Shown here in pieces: positions 13,133 through 21,762 of a stretch of DNA of 24,000 bases. The notes under the pieces were generated by a model, which was not told where the DNA came from, made no database searches, and saw only the letters and a program-made list of their open reading frames with translations. A program made the translations under genes and the position numbers. Position 1 is the stretch's first letter. Each line of letters begins with the position of its first letter. This stretch comes from an uncultured Leptospiraceae bacterium (lineage in GTDB: Bacteria > Spirochaetota > Leptospiria > Leptospirales > Leptonemataceae): the NCBI GenBank assembly GCA_964619535.1, contig CAZUEX010000006.1, positions 6,548 through 30,547 on the forward strand, read 5' to 3'.

Positions 13133-13564
13133 CTACCGCCTTACGGCTGCATCGATCTTCCTGCGGTTCTTTTCAAAGGCCGTGTCGGCATCCTCTGAAA
13201 ACCAGGAATCAAAGAAAAACAGGTTGGCGCTTCCCGATTCAAGACGCTGCACCACCTTTCCCGAATCTCTGTCGATCAAAAGGGCAAAGCCCGTCCCCTG
13301 GCTATGCGCATCAAAGGCATCGAGGATTCCAAGCTCCCTGGCCTTTTCGCGTGCCCGGGCTGCCGTTGCATCGCCGGTAAGATCAAAAACGACGACCTCA
13401 ATGCCCTTCGATTGAGCATACTGGCTCAGCTCGGCAAACCCTGGATGCACCTGGTCCCAGCGCTTACACGATGGACACCAGTCCGCATGAAATTTTGCCA
13501 GTACGAGGCTTTCGGCAGCCAGTGGCGATACGAACAGAAGCCCCAGCAGTATCCATCTTCTCAT
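13133..13564 (-). CDS. Exported thioredoxin-fold protein (WCPSC active site)
   Basis: Signal-peptide-like MRRWILLGLLFVSPLAAE followed by LAKFHADWCPSCKRW. Its ATG overlaps the upstream cyclase stop (ATGA at 13561-13564). Confidence 0.8.
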   Translation of the reverse strand: MRRWILLGLLFVSPLAAESLVLAKFHADWCPSCKRWDQVHPGFAELSQYAQSKGIEVVVFDLTGDATAARAREKARELGILDAFDAHSQGTGFALLIDRDSGKVVQRLESGSANLFFFDSWFSEDADTAFEKNRRKIDAAVRR

Positions 13565-14841
13565 TGTTTTCCTCCGTCTTTCAGCATGGCATATCGACGC
13601 TTGAATTCCTCGTTTGGATGGTTCGGACTCTTTTCCAGTTCAGGCCGGATGCCCCGAACAAGAAACATCTCCATCTCTCCCTTACCCTTTACGGGCAACT
13701 GGCCGCGACTTTCACAGACGAAGAAATCCTTCACCTGATCATAGAGATCTTTTGAAATGTTCACCTGGCCGGGAACTCCTGACGATTCCATACGGCTGGC
13801 AGTGTTTACCGTATCACCCCATACATCGTAGACGAACTTGTCGGTTCCAACGACGCCTGTAATCACTGGACCGCAGTGCAATCCGATTCGTAAACTCCAG
13901 CCTCTGGCTGCCTCACTCGATGCTGCATGTCGTTTCATCAGCCTGTGAAAGCGAAGAGCACAGAGAACGGCATCGACGGGATGTGTATGGTTTTCTTCGG
14001 GGATGCCACCGGCTGCCATGTAGGCATCGCCAATCGTTTTGATCTTCTCAAGGCCTGTGGCTCGAACAGCGCCATCGAAGGCTGCAAAGATCTGATCCAG
14101 CTCCTGAATCAGGTCTGCAGGCTTCATATTGGCGCTTGCACGTGTAAAGCCTGTCATATCAGCAAAAAGAACGGTAGCATAGGCATAGCCGCGAGGCGTG
14201 ACCCGGTCTCGCATCTTCAGCTCTTCGGCTACAACGTCGGGAAGAATGTTGCGCAACAATCGATCCGACTTCAGTCGCTCAAACTCAAGGTTCCTGGACA
14301 GGATAAAGATCAGAATGCCGGTCAGCAGCTGTACAAAGAGGTAGTTGCTGCCTGCATCCATCACCCGCTCTTCCCGCGACGGATACATCGTAATGTACTC
14401 AGGATGAAAATACTCTGTCAGGAAAAGAGCGGCGACCGTTGCCAGCGAAACAGAGTAGATCAGGTAGGGCTTGCGGCCATCAAGCAGGATCGTTGCAATG
14501 ACCAGGGCCGGTATAAAGTAGTAATGCGCCCCTCCAACAGAGCCTCCATTCCAGAACCAGTTGAACGACAGAAAGGCAAGCAGCGAAATATTGAAAACCC
14601 AGAACAGAGATTGATGACGGGATCGGAACCGCGATATGTAATAGTAGACCAGAAACAAACTGCCCGATATAAAATGCAGAAGGAACAGGCGCAGTGGATC
14701 AGGCAGGGTCAGGGCAGCAAAGGCACCGAACAGGTTCAGGACGCCATTGACAAGGCTGACCGAGTTAAAGAGCCGTGCAGAAAGAGGATCCAGCCTGGGA
14801 TCCCCCACAAGAGCGATCAGAAAGCGTTGCAGGGCTTTCAT
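13561..14841 (-). CDS. Membrane-bound class III adenylate cyclase (N-terminal ~6-TM domain + CHD catalytic domain)
   Basis: ATVLFADMTGFT, KIKTIGDAYMAAGG and FVYDVWGDTVNTASRMES carry both metal Asp residues and the adenine-type Lys/Asp pair. Roughly the first 190 aa are hydrophobic helices. Confidence 0.9.
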   Translation of the reverse strand: MKALQRFLIALVGDPRLDPLSARLFNSVSLVNGVLNLFGAFAALTLPDPLRLFLLHFISGSLFLVYYYISRFRSRHQSLFWVFNISLLAFLSFNWFWNGGSVGGAHYYFIPALVIATILLDGRKPYLIYSVSLATVAALFLTEYFHPEYITMYPSREERVMDAGSNYLFVQLLTGILIFILSRNLEFERLKSDRLLRNILPDVVAEELKMRDRVTPRGYAYATVLFADMTGFTRASANMKPADLIQELDQIFAAFDGAVRATGLEKIKTIGDAYMAAGGIPEENHTHPVDAVLCALRFHRLMKRHAASSEAARGWSLRIGLHCGPVITGVVGTDKFVYDVWGDTVNTASRMESSGVPGQVNISKDLYDQVKDFFVCESRGQLPVKGKGEMEMFLVRGIRPELEKSPNHPNEEFKRRYAMLKDGGKQ

Positions 14842-15218
14842 GCCTGCCTCCTGCTCTGCAAGCGATCCAGCAAAAGGATGGCTGAAGCTGCTGCAAGGAT
14901 CAGGCAGGCCATGCCAAACAGCAGTCCTGAATCGTTCTGTACCTCGATACCCAGTACCGTCAGGTGAAGAACGATCGCAGGCCCGATAATCAGAATCGAC
15001 AGAAGTGCACCCTTTCTGTAATGAGCAGGCCAGATCAGCAGGACGGCAGCCAGCAATTCGCCAAGTGCCGTCAGATAGCGGCCAGCAGGTTCCATCCCCA
15101 CGGTTTCGAAGATATGCACGGATTCAGGCGAACCGCTGAACTTAAAGAACAGTGTCTGCAAAAAAATTATTGCCACAATCCATCTCAGGATCACAATCAT
15201 ACTTCTCCGGGCCTGCAT
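14838..15218 (-). CDS. DoxX-family integral membrane protein
   Basis: 126 aa and four TM segments, with a DoxX-like pattern (RWIVAIIFLQTLFFKFSG...ALGELLAAVLLIWP...). Its stop overlaps the cyclase ATG (ATGA at 14838-14841). Confidence 0.7.
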   Translation of the reverse strand: MQARRSMIVILRWIVAIIFLQTLFFKFSGSPESVHIFETVGMEPAGRYLTALGELLAAVLLIWPAHYRKGALLSILIIGPAIVLHLTVLGIEVQNDSGLLFGMACLILAAASAILLLDRLQSRRQA

Positions 15219-15357
15219 ACAGGCTTATTCGCAACGGTCTGCGTCGGGTTGCACACGGAAACAAAGCTCTGCCAGAAAAGATTTCGAAAATCCGATCCCC
15301 GGAAAAGACTCATGTACACACTAAAAGGAAAGAATCAAAGAAAAAGAAGGCCTTTCG

Positions 15358-15891
15358 ATGAAACCCACTGCTCCGAACTACGAAAATCGTGAGATGAACT
15401 CTACACAGAAAACATCTCCGGTCGCTTCTTTACAGGAACTCCTGAAACAGACTCGCAACCTGCTGCAACAGATCACGGACGAACAATATACACTGAGCGT
15501 TACCGACAATGCCTCCGGTGTCGGCGCTCATATTCGCCACACATTGGATCATATTCGCGCACTTCTGAACAGTCGTCAGGGCTCGGTGGTGGACTATGAT
15601 ACCAGAGAGCGTAACACCGTAATCGAGCGATCGCGTTCCTCTGCCATACAGGCCATCGACGAGATCATTAGCGAGCTTAACGATATCTCGGATAGAGATC
15701 TGCACATTACCGTAGAACTGCAGCTCCTTGTTGCTCCTTTTCAGCCGCGCTACACCACAACCTCAACGATCGGTCGCGAGCTGGCCTTTGTTCTGCACCA
15801 TGCCATACACCATAATGCCATGATCGCTTCCATTTTTCCAGCCTTGGCATTGACGTTCCTGCCTTTTTTGGCTTTGCGCCGGCAACTATAG
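15358..15891 (+). CDS. DinB-fold (DinB_2-like) metal-binding protein; C-terminus apparently frameshifted (conserved tail continues in another frame to 15905)
   Basis: GAHIRHTLDHI...VDYDTRERN...STIGRELAFVLHHAIHHNAMI is a His-triad DinB_2 pattern. The family-typical tail SLGIDVPAFFGFAPATIEVLS is encoded in the -1 frame from about 15838 to the TGA at 15903-15905. Confidence 0.75.
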   Translation: MKPTAPNYENREMNSTQKTSPVASLQELLKQTRNLLQQITDEQYTLSVTDNASGVGAHIRHTLDHIRALLNSRQGSVVDYDTRERNTVIERSRSSAIQAIDEIISELNDISDRDLHITVELQLLVAPFQPRYTTTSTIGRELAFVLHHAIHHNAMIASIFPALALTFLPFLALRRQL

Positions 15892-15913
15892 AAGTTCTAT
15901 CTTGAGGAAGACC

Positions 15914-16642
15914 ATGTGCACCCTTACGATACTACCGAGAACCGATGACGGCTTGCTATTCTCGGCCATGATCAATCGTGATGAGCTGCGCAGCAGAAAA
16001 AAGGCCACACCTCCGGCCTGGCAGGACGGTATCTTTGCTCCACGCGACACCGATGCCGGTGGAACCTGGACGGCCATCAACCGGGCAGGCCTGATCGGCT
16101 TCGTGCTGAATCGATCCGAAAAGGACAACCATTATAACGATGGCTCCATAAGCCGGGGCAGTCTTTTGCCGATACTTCTCAGGGCTTCTTCGGTAAACTC
16201 GGCGGTGAACGCCTTTGGCTACATCCCTCTGGAGAAAATGCGCCCTTTCTATTGTCTTCTTCGCGACACCGCCAGTCAGATCCTTTTCACGTATAACGGC
16301 AGATCTCTTACCAGAACTACAGTGCCACTCGATCAGCCCTTTCTACTTGCAACGTCAGGGCTGGGGGATGGGCTGGTGCGTCCGTATCGCGAAGCACGCT
16401 TTCTTAAGCTACTCCAAAGCGGCAGAAACCGGGAAGCACAGAAGAGCTTCCATCACACCTTCGATCCTGAATACCCTGTACAGAGCGTTCTGATGCAGAG
16501 AGATGAAGCCAGAACCGTTAGCATCACCTCCTATGCCATCGAAGAGAACGCTGCTACGATAGAGTACCGGGACATAGACTCCACAGAAAGTGTTCAAACT
16601 CGCATCGCCCTGCAGGCAGAGGAAAGCTACCGTGCCCCTTGA
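15914..16642 (+). CDS. NRDE-family (TANGO2-like) protein
   Basis: It starts MCTLTILP (Cys2) and has the eponymous NRDE motif at residues 21-24 (AMINRDELR). GAGGAAG lies 4-5 nt upstream of ATG 15914. The TTG at 15902 in the ORF track is unlikely to be the start. Confidence 0.85.
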   Translation: MCTLTILPRTDDGLLFSAMINRDELRSRKKATPPAWQDGIFAPRDTDAGGTWTAINRAGLIGFVLNRSEKDNHYNDGSISRGSLLPILLRASSVNSAVNAFGYIPLEKMRPFYCLLRDTASQILFTYNGRSLTRTTVPLDQPFLLATSGLGDGLVRPYREARFLKLLQSGRNREAQKSFHHTFDPEYPVQSVLMQRDEARTVSITSYAIEENAATIEYRDIDSTESVQTRIALQAEESYRAP

Positions 16643-16643
16643 C

Positions 16644-18197
16644 ATGTCTTCAGAATGGGCCTTTGCCCTCTCCGTGATCCTGGCCACCTTCATTGCAGAA
16701 GATGCCACACTGATTGCCGTTGGCCTGGCCATCGGTGCCGGCATGGTCTCGCCCCTGACAGGACTGGCCTCTGCCTTCAGCGGCGTGCTTCTGGGAGATG
16801 CAGGGCTGTGGGTTGTCGGTGCCCTTTTACAGAAAACAGGGCTAAAACGCTGGCACAGAATCCGCGTTGCTGCCGAGAAAGGCAGCCAGTTTCTAAGGCA
16901 GCATACGGGTAAGCTTGTCATCTCTGCCCGGTTCATTCCCGGACTGCGCCTTCCGGTCTATCTTGCAGCAGGGTTTACGCATCGCCGCTTTTCGTCGTTC
17001 TTGCTCTATGCTGCCCTGGCCGTCTTCCTGTGGACGCCCCTGCTGGTAGGCCTCTCCGCTATGCTTGGAAGAGCCGCCGCAGAAACGCTGCAGACATACA
17101 GCTACCTCATGTTTCTTCCTCTTCTGTCGATGTTTGCAGGCCCCATCATGCGTCTTGGCGGCCGACGGTTTCCGCGTTTGCGGCGATATGAATTCTGGCC
17201 TGCCTGGATCTTCTACGCCCCTCTTATTCCGTATATTCTCTATCAGAGCCTTCGCTCAGGCGGATTTGGGACCATTGCAGCGGCCAATCCTGCCATCCCT
17301 GGCGGTGGCATTGTCGGCGAATCGAAGTTTCAAATACTGTCCCTGCTTCCGCCTCTGCATTCGTTACGAACCGATCTGATCCCCGGGGATGGGGATCGTT
17401 CCAGCCGTCTTGATGATGTTCTTGCTTCGCGTAGGAACCGCTTCCCTGTCATTATGAAGCCCGATGCTTCACAGCGCGGTGCATCGGTTCGAGTTTTACA
17501 CAGCCGTCAGCAGATGCAGGCCTATCTGGAACAGACCCCGGGGGATGTTCTTGTTCAGGACTATCACCCTGGCCCGGCTGAGGTAGGAATCTTCTATGTC
17601 AGGGATCCCGATTGGCACAGGGGGCAGATCTTTTCGATAACGGGCAAAAGGTTTCCCGCTGTTCGTGGTGATGGAGTGCATACGCTAAAGCAGCTCATCG
17701 AATCGCATGACAGGTATCGCTTTCAAAAGAACGTTTTCTTTCGTCGCTTCAAGGATCAGCTGCACATCGTTCCCGAAGAAGGGAAGACCGTTTCCCTTGG
17801 CAAAGTGGGTAACCACTGCCAGGGCACTTCGTTCTACGATCGCAGCGATCTCATCACCGAGGAGCTTACGCGAGCCATCGATGAAATGGCACAGGCCATG
17901 AACGGCTTTTACTTTGGACGGTTTGACATTCGCTTTGAATCCGAAGAGGCCTTAAAGCAGGGACGGGACTTCTACGTGGTAGAAGCCAATGGCGTTACCT
18001 CAGAATCCACCAACCTGTATGATCCTTCTTTTTCATTACTGCAGGCCTATTCGATCCTGTTTCTGCAATGGAAGACACTTTTTGTCATTGCTCGCAAGAA
18101 CCGACGGCGTGGCATCCCGGGCAGCAACCTGTTCCGGATCGCAAGAGAAACCGTCGAGTATTACCAGAAAAGAGAATTCCCCGCAGATTCTGACTGA
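16644..18197 (+). CDS. Fusion protein: N-terminal DedA/VTT membrane domain + C-terminal ATP-grasp ligase domain
   Basis: DedA motifs are present: FIAEDATLIAVGLAIG, GVLLGDAGLWVVG and ARFIPGLRLPVYLAAGF. After about residue 200, ATP-grasp-like strands follow: FPVIMKPDASQRGASVRVL, VLVQDYHPGPAEVGIFY, GNHCQG and FGRFDIRFES...FYVVEANGVTSEST. ATG 16644 lies 1 nt after the NRDE stop, and GTG 16632 is an alternative start. Confidence 0.8.
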   Translation: MSSEWAFALSVILATFIAEDATLIAVGLAIGAGMVSPLTGLASAFSGVLLGDAGLWVVGALLQKTGLKRWHRIRVAAEKGSQFLRQHTGKLVISARFIPGLRLPVYLAAGFTHRRFSSFLLYAALAVFLWTPLLVGLSAMLGRAAAETLQTYSYLMFLPLLSMFAGPIMRLGGRRFPRLRRYEFWPAWIFYAPLIPYILYQSLRSGGFGTIAAANPAIPGGGIVGESKFQILSLLPPLHSLRTDLIPGDGDRSSRLDDVLASRRNRFPVIMKPDASQRGASVRVLHSRQQMQAYLEQTPGDVLVQDYHPGPAEVGIFYVRDPDWHRGQIFSITGKRFPAVRGDGVHTLKQLIESHDRYRFQKNVFFRRFKDQLHIVPEEGKTVSLGKVGNHCQGTSFYDRSDLITEELTRAIDEMAQAMNGFYFGRFDIRFESEEALKQGRDFYVVEANGVTSESTNLYDPSFSLLQAYSILFLQWKTLFVIARKNRRRGIPGSNLFRIARETVEYYQKREFPADSD

Positions 18198-18214
18198 TTC
18201 AGGAGAGGTTCATT

Positions 18215-18961
18215 ATGAAAACCGAGTTGAAACAGGCCTTTATTGCAAGGACCCCTGCAGAACGAGAGGCTGCATTGCGATTAAGACATGAGGTCTTCTC
18301 GATAGAGCAGGGGCACGGAACAAGCGGGGCAGAGGATGGCATCGACCGGGATCCCTTTGATGATTACTGCGAGCATCTGATCGTCCTTCATCCAACCCGG
18401 TCAGAGACCGTAATCGGAACCTACAGAATCCTGCTATCAGATGTAGCGGAAACAGGTCCGGGCTATTACTCTGAAACAGAATTTGATCTAAGCGGAATCC
18501 GGAAGCTGCCCATGCGCAAGGCCGAAATTGGACGAAGCTGCGTTCATCCAGATTTTCGTGATGGCAGCGTCATCCGGCTTCTATGGGCAGGCCTGGTAAG
18601 ATTCATGCAAGAGTCCGGTGCAGGCTGCTTTATGGGATGTGGCTCCCTGCCTGGCAGCGACGTAAAGCTGGCCGAGATCACCTATGCCTGTTTCCGTGAA
18701 GCAGGCAGGGTTTTGCCGCAGCACGTCGTGCAGCCGGTTCCTGAAGCACGGTTACCCGAATTCCAAACGGACATCATACTGGAAGACAGAAAACAGGGCA
18801 ATCGAATGATGCCTCCTCTGATGAAGGGCTATATGCGTGCCGGTGCATGTATTGCGGGCCCCCCTGTCTGTGATAGCCGCTTTGGAAGTATCGACTTCTT
18901 TCTTATCTTCTTTCCTGAATCAGGGAATACCGAATATAAGCGGCATTTTGGTTTAGAGTGA
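18215..18961 (+). CDS. OlsB-type GNAT N-acyltransferase (Acetyltransf_5 / 'putative hemolysin' family; acyl-ACP-dependent amino-acid N-acyltransferase)
   Basis: AALRLRHEVFSIEQG...DRDPFDDYCEHLIVLH...VIGTYRIL...YYSETEFDL...AEIGRSCVHPDFR...LLWAGL...GCGSL matches the OlsB / lyso-ornithine-lipid synthase family pattern. AGGAGAGG lies 7 nt upstream of the ATG. Confidence 0.85.
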   Translation: MKTELKQAFIARTPAEREAALRLRHEVFSIEQGHGTSGAEDGIDRDPFDDYCEHLIVLHPTRSETVIGTYRILLSDVAETGPGYYSETEFDLSGIRKLPMRKAEIGRSCVHPDFRDGSVIRLLWAGLVRFMQESGAGCFMGCGSLPGSDVKLAEITYACFREAGRVLPQHVVQPVPEARLPEFQTDIILEDRKQGNRMMPPLMKGYMRAGACIAGPPVCDSRFGSIDFFLIFFPESGNTEYKRHFGLE

Positions 18962-18971
18962 AACCAGCCCC

Positions 18972-19015
18972 CTCCATTTGCGAATGATACACAGTCCGAT
19001 CATACACAAATGGAG
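18972..19015 (+). promoter_or_regulatory. Extended hairpin whose 3' arm contains the Shine-Dalgarno of the peroxiredoxin-like gene
   Basis: CTCCATTTG (18972-18980) pairs perfectly with CAAATGGAG (19007-19015). An inner ATGAT (18984-18988) / ATCAT (18999-19003) stem sits across a symmetric 3x3 internal loop. The GGAG at 19012-19015 is the SD for ATG 19022. No U-tract follows. Confidence 0.35.
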
Positions 19016-19021
19016 AGTAAC

Positions 19022-19589
19022 ATGGCAGAGAATATCGCCACTACGGCAGAAAAGATTCAGCCCCTGTCGGTGGGTTCCAGAGTACCTGATGTCACACTGA
19101 AGCTGGTAGACGGGAAGACCTGCTCCCTGAAAGAACAGCTTGGCGGAAAGCCTTCCCTCATCATCTTAATATAGAGGTGGATGGTGCCCTTACTGCAACA
19201 AACAGCTGGCCAACCTGAGGCTCATCGAACAGGATATTCTCAAGGCTGGCGTACAGATTGTTGCCCTCTGTGCGGACAGGCCCGAAAAGGTAGCTGAAAC
19301 GCTGGAGCAACACAAGCCAGTGTACACGATCCTTTCCGATAATGACCTGGCAGCAGCTTCAGCCTTTGGCATCACCTTTCGCGTCGATGACCAGATGCTT
19401 GCAATGCTAAAAGAGCATAACCTTGATATCGAAGATGCATCAGGAAAGACACACCACCTTCTGCCGGTGCCGGCAGTGTTTGCTGTGGATGCAGGTGGAA
19501 CGATACAGTTCAGCCATGCCAATCCAGACTACACGGTGCGCATGTCCAATGCAGAGGTGATGGAGGTGGTCAAGCAAATGACGAAATAG
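19022..19589 (+). pseudogene. Peroxiredoxin-like (AhpC/TSA-redoxin fold) protein with WCPYC active site, interrupted by a +1 frameshift at ~19169
   Basis: Frame 1 reads MAENIATTAEKIQPLSVGSRVPDVTLKLVDGKTCSLKEQLGGKPSLIILI and then hits a stop (TAG 19172-19174). The next frame, from 19170, continues YRGGWCPYCNKQLANLRLIEQDILKAGVQIVALCADRPEKVAE...YTILSDNDLAAASAFGITFRV... to 19589. Together the two parts form one canonical family member. Confidence 0.85.
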
Positions 19590-19663: not shown

Positions 19664-20809
19664 ATGCTGAAAGAACAGTACCATCACGTAAGGCAGGCCT
19701 CCACGGGCATGGTGCAACCTCTTGAAACAGAGGACTTTGTTCTACAGCCCGTGGAGTTTGTCAGCCCTCCACGATGGAATCTGGCCCATACGACGTGGTT
19801 CTTCGAAGAATTCGTCCTTGCACAGTTTACGGACGATTACAGGCGCTATCATCCACAGTATGCCTTTCTCTTTAACAGCTATTACAATGCAGTCGGTGAT
19901 CGCACCCCAAGGCCGCACAGAGGACATCTCAGCCGGCCGACGGTTCAGGAGATCATGGACTATCGTTCCTATGTAGATGAGCAGATGGATCGCTTCTTCG
20001 ACTCAGATCGATGCACAGCAGAAGCACAGGAGATGATCACCCTCGGACTGCATCATGAGCAACAACACCAGGAGCTTTTCTACACGGATCTGAAATACAC
20101 CTTTCACCTGAATCCCCTGTTTCCCGTTTACAAAGACGTCGGTTTCTGCGAACAATTGCCACAGGGGGACGATCGTTTCATACGTATTCCAGAAGGGATC
20201 TATCGCATCGGCTATGAAGGGGATGGCTTCTGCTTTGATAACGAACGCATGGCCCATAACGTCTTTCTACAGTCCTTTGAAATCCAGAACCGGCTGGTGA
20301 CCAATCGAGAATACATGGACTTCATCGAAGACGGGGGATATGAGTCCTTTTCGCTATGGCATGAAGAGGGCTGGAACACCATCGCAGCGAAAAAGGCTCC
20401 GCTGTACTGGATGCGCATCGACGGCATCTGGCATCATTATACGTTAGCAGGCCTTCGTCCTGTCAATCCGGATCATGTGCTCAGCCATGTAACGTATTTC
20501 GAAGCGGCTGCCTTTGCCCGCTGGATGGGCTGCCGCCTGCCAACGGAGTTTGAATGGGAGGTGGCATCGGATTCCTTTGCCTGGGGACAGCGCTGGGAAT
20601 GGACCGAAAGCGCCTACCTGCCCTATCCCGGATTTCAAACGGCCGACAATGCTGCCGGCGAATACAATGGTAAGTTCATGGTGAACCAGAAGGTACTGCG
20701 GGGCGCATCGGCAGCCACCCCCGCCGGACATGCCCGTAAAACATATCGCAATTTCTTTCATCCCCACATAGGCTACCAGTACAACGGAATCAGGCTGGCC
20801 AGAGATTGA
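19664..20809 (+). CDS. egtB: Ergothioneine biosynthesis sulfoxide synthase EgtB (short form: DinB_2 + FGE-sulfatase-like domains)
   Basis: SPPRWNLAHTTWFFEEFVL, LFNSYYNAVG, LGLHHEQQHQELFYTDLKY, and the C-terminal FGE-like WEWTESAYLPYPGF...VLRGASAATPAGHARKTYRNFF. Confidence 0.9.
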   Translation: MLKEQYHHVRQASTGMVQPLETEDFVLQPVEFVSPPRWNLAHTTWFFEEFVLAQFTDDYRRYHPQYAFLFNSYYNAVGDRTPRPHRGHLSRPTVQEIMDYRSYVDEQMDRFFDSDRCTAEAQEMITLGLHHEQQHQELFYTDLKYTFHLNPLFPVYKDVGFCEQLPQGDDRFIRIPEGIYRIGYEGDGFCFDNERMAHNVFLQSFEIQNRLVTNREYMDFIEDGGYESFSLWHEEGWNTIAAKKAPLYWMRIDGIWHHYTLAGLRPVNPDHVLSHVTYFEAAAFARWMGCRLPTEFEWEVASDSFAWGQRWEWTESAYLPYPGFQTADNAAGEYNGKFMVNQKVLRGASAATPAGHARKTYRNFFHPHIGYQYNGIRLARD

Positions 20810-20811
20810 TC

Positions 20812-21762
20812 ATGCAAACGTTAACACAATTCGCTTCGGATACGATTACAGGCCTGCAGGCGCATCCCAAATTCCTTTTGCCGCGACACTTCTACGATGA
20901 TCGCGGTTCTCTGCTCTTTCAGAAGATTACGGAATTACCCGAATACTATCTTTACAGGGCTGAAGAGGCTATCCTTTCTGCCGAGGCCGATAAGCTGCCT
21001 CAGATCATCGGAAAACGCCCCCTGCAGATCATCGAGCCTGGAGCAGGAGACGGACAGAAGGCACGCTACATTTTACAGGCCTTTGCAAAAAGCCAGAAGG
21101 AGTTTTGCTATATTCCCGTGGACATCAGCGTCGATACGAATGACAGACTGGCCACGTCCCTGAAGCAGGAGTTTCCCGGCCTTTCTGTAAATCCCCTGCA
21201 TGGCGACTACTTTACGGTCTTGAAGAATCTTCCTGCCACAGAAGACCATGAACGCCTCATCCTCTTTCTGGGCTCCAATATCGGCAACTACTCCGGCGAA
21301 GAAACGGATGCACTTCTTTCCATGCTTCACAGCCTGTTGAATGCCTCCGATCATCTGTTGATCGGTTTCGACCTGAAGAAATCCCCCGAGCGAATCCTGC
21401 GCGCCTACTCAGACGGAGCCGGCATTACGCGCGAATTTAACCTGAATCACCTTAGGCGGATCAACCGCGAACTCGAAGCAAACTTCGACGTAGATTCTTT
21501 CGAACATCATGCATCCTACGACCCCCTCAGCGGTGAGGTGAAAAGCTATCTCGTAAGCACGCGAAAACAAACCGTGCATCTAAAACGGCTCAATACGGAA
21601 ATCGTCTTCGATGCATGGGAGCCGATCTACATGGAGGTTTCGCGCAAATACGACATCCCGACGATTGAATCACTGGCACACCGGCATGGCTTTCAGTGTC
21701 AGCAACACTTCTTTGCCAGGGATCGCGATTTCGTTGATTCACTGTGGATCAAAGTGGGCTAA
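20812..21762 (+). CDS. egtD: L-histidine N-alpha-methyltransferase EgtD
   Basis: FYDDRGSLLFQKITELPEYYLYRAEEAIL, IIEPGAGDGQK, YIPVDIS, LFLGSNIGNY, GFDLKK...AYSDGAGITREFNLNHLRRINREL. ATG 20812 lies 2 nt after the egtB stop. The TTG at 20806 in the track is unlikely to be the start. Confidence 0.92.
   Translation: MQTLTQFASDTITGLQAHPKFLLPRHFYDDRGSLLFQKITELPEYYLYRAEEAILSAEADKLPQIIGKRPLQIIEPGAGDGQKARYILQAFAKSQKEFCYIPVDISVDTNDRLATSLKQEFPGLSVNPLHGDYFTVLKNLPATEDHERLILFLGSNIGNYSGEETDALLSMLHSLLNASDHLLIGFDLKKSPERILRAYSDGAGITREFNLNHLRRINRELEANFDVDSFEHHASYDPLSGEVKSYLVSTRKQTVHLKRLNTEIVFDAWEPIYMEVSRKYDIPTIESLAHRHGFQCQQHFFARDRDFVDSLWIKVG

Follow-up and report, generated by a model that had tools for sequence, protein, structure and literature searches.

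Does a reading frame of 517 codons that begins as a DedA membrane protein and ends as an ATP-grasp ligase encode one protein and, if so, what might its two halves do together? The frame lies in DNA from an uncultured Leptospiraceae bacterium, within a stretch of 24,000 nucleotides (assembly GCA_964619535.1, contig CAZUEX010000006.1, positions 6,548 to 30,547 of the forward strand) that was analysed as a whole and is referred to here as the window; coordinates are those of the window. We find that this fusion gene encodes one genuine protein that joins a VTT/DedA domain to an ATP-grasp domain. The gene is linked to aminolipid synthases, and we propose that its product may modify the head group of an aminolipid. 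The gene and its parts, with the evidence that delimits each, are:

16644..18197, + strand, VTT/DedA–ATP-grasp fusion gene, 517 amino acids (translation and list of open reading frames, ORFs)
16644..17159, + strand, VTT/DedA membrane domain, residues 1–172 (PF09335, invariant residues, AlphaFold2 helices, hydropathy)
17160..17195, + strand, Arg-rich linker, predicted to be cytoplasmic, residues 173–184 (predicted local distance difference test score, pLDDT, below 50 at 173–175)
17196..17255, + strand, aromatic, probably interfacial helix WPAWIFYAPLIPYILYQSLR, residues 185–204 (invariant residues, hydropathy)
17256..18113, + strand, ATP-grasp ligase domain, residues 205–490 (Foldseek, alignment of hidden Markov models (HMMs), invariant columns)
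17457–17459, + strand, catalytic Lys K272 (invariant, aligns with the KP of CphA1)
17925–17927, + strand, Mg-binding D428 (invariant, aligns with the D of CphA1)
17982–17990, + strand, E447 and N449 (invariant, align with the E-x-N of CphA1)
18114..18197, + strand, C-terminal amphipathic helices and stop codon (AlphaFold2 helices 465–488 and 496–508)

Translation of 16644–18197 (+) gives 517 codons with zero internal stops, in agreement with the initial annotation, and contains the motifs quoted there: AEDATL (residues 18–23), GVLLGDAGLW (47–56) and RFIPGLR (96–102) in the DedA half, the hydrophobic stretch YEFWPAWIFYAPLIPYILY (182–200), and VIMKPD (269–274), VQDYHPGPAEVGIFY (304–318), FGRFDIRF (424–431) and VVEANG (445–450) in the ligase half. 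The longest ORF around the gene spans 16590–18197. The ATG at 16644 leaves a gap of 1 nt to the preceding TANGO2 gene; an alternative GTG start at 16632, with AGGAAAG 5 nt upstream, overlaps the stop codon of that gene and yields a protein of 521 amino acids that is identical to a database entry (P0002).

Frameshifts close to the gene had raised the concern that assembly errors, through an indel or the loss of a stop codon, had run two genes together. The assembly does contain at least one single-base frameshift, in the DinB gene 800 bases upstream, but the fusion gene is unaffected. A database search returned more than 1,400 homologues that cover 93–100% of the protein at 40–73% identity, and scans with back-translated motifs located relatives in 384 species-level genomes, mainly of Planctomycetota, with some of Leptospirales and Vicinamibacteria. 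In a genome of the same genus, the gene is 73% identical across residues 1–517 and has no stops. An alignment of 60 homologues has more than 80 invariant columns, which are spread over both halves and the junction itself (R178, R181, W182, E183, W185, W188 and P193). Orthologues split by a stop codon at the junction were looked for, and the orthologues proved overwhelmingly to be fused. On the homologues, the alignment, the motif scans and the same-genus genome, we reject the artefact, the probability of which is negligible.

Membrane domain, helix and ligase

Pfam model VTT_dom (PF09335) matches residues 27–138 (E = 1.9e-13, 51.4 bits against a cut-off of 33.9) and is spanned almost completely, from model positions 5 to 121 of 123, which places the N-terminal half in the VTT family. 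In the AlphaFold2 model the domain consists of two re-entrant loops, one near E19/D20 and one formed by R96-P99-G100-R102, and three membrane helices. The elements follow one another as two short helices near E19/D20, a long helix with D52, amphipathic helices at 68–95, the RFxPGxR loop at 96–112, two further membrane helices, the low-confidence Arg-rich linker, a helix at 187–204 and the ligase. E19, D20, D52, R96, P99, G100 and R102 are invariant in the 60 homologues and include the acidic and basic residues conserved in the domain. The acidic and basic residues of the two re-entrant loops are presumably the counterparts of E39, D51, R130 and R136, which are essential in Escherichia coli YqjA. 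The NCBIfam models for UptA, NF052604 and NF052605, give 28.1 bits against a cut-off of 250 and 19.4 against 300, so the domain is not a UptA equivalog. The complete VTT domain and its acidic and basic re-entrant-loop residues are shared with the DedA family at large (UptA, YqjA/YghB and the eukaryotic scramblases TMEM41B and VMP1). The fusion protein differs from that family in that its VTT domain is joined to an enzyme, has been lost or has decayed repeatedly and, in the genus of the window, is missing the usual N-terminal helix.

The Arg-rich linker has the lowest model confidence, and its length varies among the aligned homologues. Lys and Arg number 9 in the loop 61–101 and 5 in 171–188, with 0 in 32–36 and 0 in 150–154. 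From these counts by loop, we infer that the N terminus lies outside, that the first re-entrant loop enters from the outside and the second from the inside, and that the ligase is inside. Relatives with further domains suggest a compatible arrangement: those in which an alpha/beta-hydrolase precedes the VTT domain and the ligase open with a basic stretch that is followed by one transmembrane helix, and those with an additional TANGO2 domain have TANGO2 first, then one transmembrane helix, then the hydrolase. These N-terminal features would put the hydrolase outside and the ATP-grasp domain inside.

The initial annotation had noted an extra hydrophobic stretch after the DedA domain. The stretch exists, but it is part of the ligase module rather than of DedA. 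Its conserved motif is WEFWPxW, with E183, W185, W188 and P193 invariant in the 60 homologues; the mean hydropathy of residues 185–204 is 0.60, which is below the level of a transmembrane helix, and basic residues flank both ends. The helix thus looks interfacial rather than transmembrane, and is predicted to be the membrane anchor of the ligase module.

The proposal that the C-terminal half is an ATP-grasp domain is borne out by structure prediction. An AlphaFold2 model of the fusion protein, built on the homologue alignment, has a mean pLDDT of 86, and a Foldseek search with it retrieved solved ATP-grasp enzymes at a probability of 1.00 and E values down to 3e-10; 374 PDB chains match at E ≤ 0.001, which identifies the ATP-grasp fold. 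The best matches are the ligase module of GshF, the G domains of cyanophycin synthetase and CphA2, followed by many Ddl structures. K272-P273, the Gly-rich loop with R278-G279, D428, E447 and N449 are invariant, as expected of ATP-grasp motifs, and an HMM alignment with cyanophycin synthetase gives IKP, GxxGxG, D and EVN as the counterparts of K272, the Gly-rich loop, D428 and E447-N449. The profile alignment pairs the family motifs with CphA1 as follows:

PlilKPDagqRGagV, with CphA1 PIVIKPLDGNHGRGI
VGdGestveeLi, with CphA1 VGNGKSTIAELI
GRfDvRy, with CphA1 GIDVVT
iveLN, with CphA1 IVEVN

On this model, the C-terminal 300 residues appear to be a working ATP-grasp enzyme with intact catalytic motifs. 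Neither Pfam nor NCBIfam assigns the ligase half to a family; matches to RimK (14.2 bits against 21), TTL and cyanophycin synthetase (20.8 bits against 850) are sub-threshold. The G domain of CphA1, the GshF module, RimK and Ddl share with the fusion ligase the fold and the ATP- and Mg-binding motifs, and CphA1 also shares the lid motif VGDGxSTxxxLI. By contrast, the fusion ligase scores far below the cut-off of every one of these families, and the N-terminal substrate domain of those enzymes is replaced by the interfacial helix and NPxIPxGGxVGESK, which is, together with GNHCQG, one of the invariant motifs specific to the family; the fusion module, moreover, is predicted to be membrane-bound. 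In relatives such as CphA, GshF and RimK, the substrate is an N-acylated residue at the C terminus of a peptide; its alpha-carboxylate is phosphorylated and then joined to an amine.

The fusion had been thought unusual. It is undescribed but common: apart from its presence in 384 species genomes, a HMMER scan with residues 176–517 found 2,785 clusters (at 50% identity) at E ≤ 0.001 and 1,152 at E ≤ 1e-30. In public databases, the homologues are annotated as ‘VTT domain-containing protein’ or ‘membrane protein DedA’. The best 148 clusters were sorted by architecture:

92 of the best 148 clusters, with a VTT domain
38 of the best 148 clusters, with a membrane domain that aligns weakly to VTT and is without the second re-entrant loop
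18 of the best 148 clusters, stand-alone ligase with no predicted transmembrane segment

For the second group, around a quarter of the family, hhalign favours a truncated VTT domain without the second re-entrant loop (93% probability), which disfavours a different fold, although not decisively. In a tree of the ligase part, stand-alone forms are scattered and the well-supported branches demand at least nine changes; some of the short entries may be fragments. All ten genomes examined from one genus of a sister family in the same order match residues ~172–510 only, with ORFs of ~370–390 amino acids, and one stand-alone protein consists of MRPEFWPAWLFYIPLIPYIIYLTIRHRG and then the ligase. The core of the family is the ATP-grasp domain and the aromatic interfacial helix, whereas the VTT/DedA domain, which is absent from Leptospira-like genomes and degenerate in roughly one in four family clusters, is evolutionarily dispensable. 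The ligase would be membrane-bound in its own right, as its own helix is kept even where DedA is gone.

Other members have gained domains. The fusion variants are hydrolase–VTT–ATP-grasp, TANGO2–hydrolase–VTT–ATP-grasp (P0136 and P0138, which carry all four domains in one chain of 1,121–1,130 amino acids) and ATP-grasp–hydrolase (P0184, a ligase with a C-terminal alpha/beta-hydrolase and no VTT). We rejected the idea that the fused hydrolase is OlsI, as it has no match to the OlsI model.

Aminolipid synthases and a proposed function

The next gene downstream points to a lipid substrate:

18215..18961, + strand, OlsB-type N-acyltransferase (PF13444, E = 2.4e-30), 17 nt downstream of the fusion gene

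The product of this gene matches the NCBIfam OlsB model NF052554 over its full length (E = 2.8e-37), at a score below the equivalog cut-off. A second OlsB-type copy elsewhere in the genome (G000:C4:27027–27770) scores 174.6 bits against 128.2 for the copy beside the fusion gene, which makes the latter an extra paralogue. The spacing of 17 nt recurs in the same-genus genome; in another genus the order is GNAT, DinB, ligase, with the synthase upstream. Each time, the OlsB-like neighbour is a second copy beside a housekeeping one. Among 80 loci, in which neighbours were clustered from non-overlapping ORFs with strict coverage, an OlsF-like bifunctional synthase is convergent with the gene in 17, including all 3 from Vicinamibacteria, and OlsH/OlsI adjoin it in 5; OlsH of locus L011 reaches 678 bits, above the cut-off of 620. 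The GH3-type OlsI/OlsH pathway was described in 2025 (PMC12493201). The fusion gene is thus linked to three non-homologous kinds of aminolipid synthase, OlsB-like, OlsF-like and OlsH/OlsI.

If the ligase depends on an aminolipid, genomes that carry it are expected to have a synthase, and this prediction was tested on 151 evenly drawn Planctomycetota genomes, counting as a synthase a PF13444 gene or an OlsH-like gene. The ligase module is present in 19 of them. A PF13444 gene occurs in 13 of these carriers, at a distance of ≤5 kb in 8, and the other 6 all have an OlsH-like gene. A synthase is therefore present in 19/19 carriers compared with 33/132 non-carriers (Fisher test, 1.2e-10, which is indicative only). 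The complementary pattern across non-homologous synthases is a stronger point than the P value. In Leptospirales, all 31 genomes have PF13444 and co-occurrence is uninformative. The initial annotation had suggested a membrane-embedded substrate or product; the ligase’s own interfacial helix and the adjacency to and co-occurrence with synthases strengthen this idea without proving it.

We propose, with a probability of roughly 0.5, that the fusion protein couples a flippase to a ligase that uses ATP to modify aminolipid head groups. In this scheme, the aromatic helix would hold an ATP-grasp ligase of the cyanophycin synthetase G-domain/GshF type on the cytoplasmic face of the membrane, where an acyl-amino-acid lipid would present it with a free carboxylate (or amine). 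The neighbouring OlsB-type acyltransferase would make a lipid of the ornithine-lipid type, the head group of which would be the likeliest source of the carboxylate; ligation would leave this head group extended and dipeptide-like, or amidated. The DedA/VTT half would move substrate or product between the membrane leaflets; in relatives, a periplasmic alpha/beta-hydrolase may act on the far side. DinB_2 and TANGO2, a protein resembling hydrolases with an N-terminal Cys, may be cytoplasmic partners.

The logic would resemble that of MprF, an aminoacyl-phosphatidylglycerol synthase fused to a flippase, which has a periplasmic aminoacyl-phosphatidylglycerol hydrolase as a partner. In both designs, one chain would join a cytoplasmic head-group-modifying enzyme to a polytopic lipid translocator, with a hydrolase on the outer face. 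The likeness is an analogy of design: no Pfam or NCBIfam model of an MprF domain matches the fusion protein at E ≤ 1. Furthermore, energy would come from an ATP-derived acyl phosphate rather than aminoacyl-tRNA, the translocator would be DedA/VTT, and the lipid is probably an aminolipid, not phosphatidylglycerol.

Several observations weigh against this proposal. We know of no precedent for ATP-grasp enzymes that act on lipids. The absence or degeneration of the VTT domain in many members implies that flipping is not essential to the job of the ligase, and the topology was derived solely from hydropathy and the positive-inside rule. There is no aminolipid synthase within 6 kb in 58 of the 80 loci, and carriers of the OlsH type have the genes more than 100 kb apart. 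As related genomes are not independent, the Fisher P value overstates the association. The aminolipid scheme leaves the roles of DinB_2 and TANGO2 unexplained, and genes of thiol-redox metabolism (DoxX, redoxins, EgtB/D) recur nearby. Finally, OlsB homologues have been noted in Leptospirales, from which no ornithine lipid is reported (PMC12971839).

Neighbouring genes and alternative functions

Upstream of the fusion gene, the window contains:

15358..15905, + strand, DinB_2-family gene, the first of the module (PF12867, conserved upstream position)
15902..16642, + strand, TANGO2/NRDE-family gene (PF05742, E = 3.2e-13)
13561..14841, − strand, class III adenylate cyclase with six transmembrane segments (PF00211)

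Genes for DinB_2 (from 15358), TANGO2 (15902/15914), the fusion protein (16644) and the OlsB-type enzyme (18215) follow one another with gaps of 1–17 nt or overlaps, and the order DinB_2, TANGO2, fusion gene is the rule in most of the 80 loci. The DinB_2 gene has a one-base frameshift near 15830 in the assembly, located by tblastn with the same-genus orthologue. Between 15816 and 15905, after HHNAMIA, the annotated frame runs into an atypical hydrophobic tail, and the conserved tail FSSLGIDVPAFFGFAPATIEVLS lies in another frame at 15834–15902 with 70% identity to that orthologue. Either an indel in the assembly or a genuine lesion could account for the frameshift. The TANGO2 ORF opens with TTG at 15902; the ATG at 15914, which gives an N-terminal Met-Cys-Thr, is the likelier true start because members of this Ntn-hydrolase-like family typically carry an N-terminal Cys. 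No NCBIfam model covers the DinB_2 protein, the TANGO2 protein or a ~278-amino-acid protein encoded upstream in other loci.

In Leptospirales loci, TANGO2 is often missing and DinB kept, with the adenylate cyclase and an alpha/beta-hydrolase gene as regular neighbours; an orthologue of the cyclase (47–80% identity) adjoins the ligase gene in 12 of 17 such loci, in varying orientation. Antisense to the cyclase gene, an ORF of 346 codons at 13927–14967 (+) has a sub-threshold match to a poxvirus family and is probably not a gene. A scan of 14800–19300 for promoters and terminators returned nothing usable above the shuffled expectation. In many Planctomycetota loci, the region upstream of DinB_2 encodes a Rieske protein with a fused membrane domain of the ferric-reductase type, together with the ~278-amino-acid protein and often redoxin-YHS and DoxX_2 proteins; this extended set occurs in loci L009, L014, L020–L022, L034, L048, L064, L074 and L079. 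In 8 loci, the gene after the OlsF-like one encodes a glyoxalase-fold protein. Downstream in the window, at 19664–21762 (+), an EgtB-like protein (DinB_2 plus FGE-sulfatase) and an EgtD-like histidine methyltransferase are encoded by an ergothioneine-type pair of genes with an overlap of 4 nt; neither gene has a counterpart in the 84 loci or the 17 Leptospirales loci searched, the same-genus locus included.

These neighbours suggest other functions, of which a low-molecular-weight thiol or redox pathway survives best, although we consider it unlikely. The ATP-grasp domain would make a peptide-like thiol or conjugate, DinB_2 would be a thiol transferase, and DedA would transport the soluble product by means of the proton gradient. 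ATP-grasp modules of GshF top the Foldseek list, DinB-fold proteins are the most constant partners, and DoxX, redoxin/AhpC and, in the window, EgtB/EgtD are encoded nearby. However, GshF, CphA and Ddl have near-equal scores at ~17% identity, which names the fold and not the substrate; the adjacency of EgtB/D is restricted to the genus of the window; and a soluble thiol would leave the interfacial helix, the fusions to a periplasmic hydrolase and the 19/19 co-occurrence with synthases unexplained.

Somewhat less probable again is a role in a polyprenyl-phosphate-linked envelope precursor, in which DedA would handle undecaprenyl phosphate, as UptA does, and a Ddl-like ligase would add an amino acid to a lipid-linked intermediate of peptidoglycan or a glycan. 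UptA and DedA are the best NCBIfam matches of the VTT half, and many Ddl structures match the model, yet UptA scores are only 28–41 bits against cut-offs of 250–300, the 80 loci hold no recurrent genes of peptidoglycan or glycan assembly, and the presence of the fusion gene follows aminolipid synthases instead.

A part in the handling of haem or a redox cofactor, with the TANGO2 homologue as a haem chaperone and the fusion protein serving delivery to nearby membrane redox proteins, seems improbable: bacterial TANGO2 homologues, including HtpA of Shewanella, have been reported in haem trafficking (PMC10470608), and in 15 of the 80 loci an upstream gene encodes a fusion of a Rieske domain with a haem-b membrane domain of the ferric-reductase type, but this gene is missing from the window and most loci, Leptospira-type loci without TANGO2 keep DinB and the ligase, and an amide ligase has no evident job in haem delivery. 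The thiol, polyprenyl and haem schemes each explain part of the neighbourhood, and none explains the interfacial helix, the periplasmic hydrolase and the co-occurrence with synthases.

Relation to known pathways and significance

ATP-dependent amidation of the carboxyl group of ornithine lipid has been known since the 1970s. The closest counterparts to a head-group ligase are found in the ornithine-lipid pathways (OlsB/OlsA, OlsF and OlsH/OlsI, with tailoring by OlsC/D/E and OlsG), and the fusion gene adjoins and co-occurs with all three synthase types. None of the known Ols tailoring enzymes is an ATP-grasp protein and none has a DedA domain. The transfer of taurine to the carboxyl group of ornithine lipid, which yields cerilipin, is ATP-dependent and its gene is unidentified (PMC12971839); ATP-dependent amide formation on a lipid carboxyl is what an ATP-grasp enzyme would do. 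DedA is mentioned neither in that review of aminolipids (PMC12971839) nor in the OlsH paper (PMC12493201), and the latter does not mention VTT or ATP-grasp either. Our literature searches found no paper that links DedA/VTT with ATP-grasp or TANGO2 with either, and nothing relevant for TANGO2 with DinB or DedA with OlsF. The family is undescribed; it is built from known kinds of domain in an MprF-like design without homology to MprF.

A bolder version of our proposal, which we hold tentatively and think rather less probable than the general one, is that this is the first ATP-grasp enzyme to act on a membrane lipid. By extending the carboxyl head group of acyl-amino-acid lipids, it would supply the class of enzyme that cerilipin-type and lipo-dipeptide aminolipids still lack, and it would work together with a DedA flippase of its own, a periplasmic hydrolase and an obligate bacterial TANGO2 partner.

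Behind the bare label ‘VTT domain-containing’, thousands of database proteins conceal an intact ligase of which there is no record in Pfam or the literature. If the aminolipid proposal is correct, the fusion protein is a candidate enzyme for the ATP-dependent amidation of the ornithine-lipid carboxyl group, and one DedA domain would have a defined cargo at a time when the substrates of DedA proteins are still being worked out. Bacterial TANGO2 is tied, by operon and gene fusion, to a VTT protein and a lipid pathway, so that bacteria can be used to test the contested function of human TANGO2; this disputed disease protein would gain the context of a lipid-amide substrate. A further prediction of the proposal is that Planctomycetota, Acidobacteriota and Leptospirales contain membrane lipids that have yet to be described. 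For Leptospirales, the presence of OlsB homologues with no reported ornithine lipid (PMC12971839) is then both a gap and a prediction.

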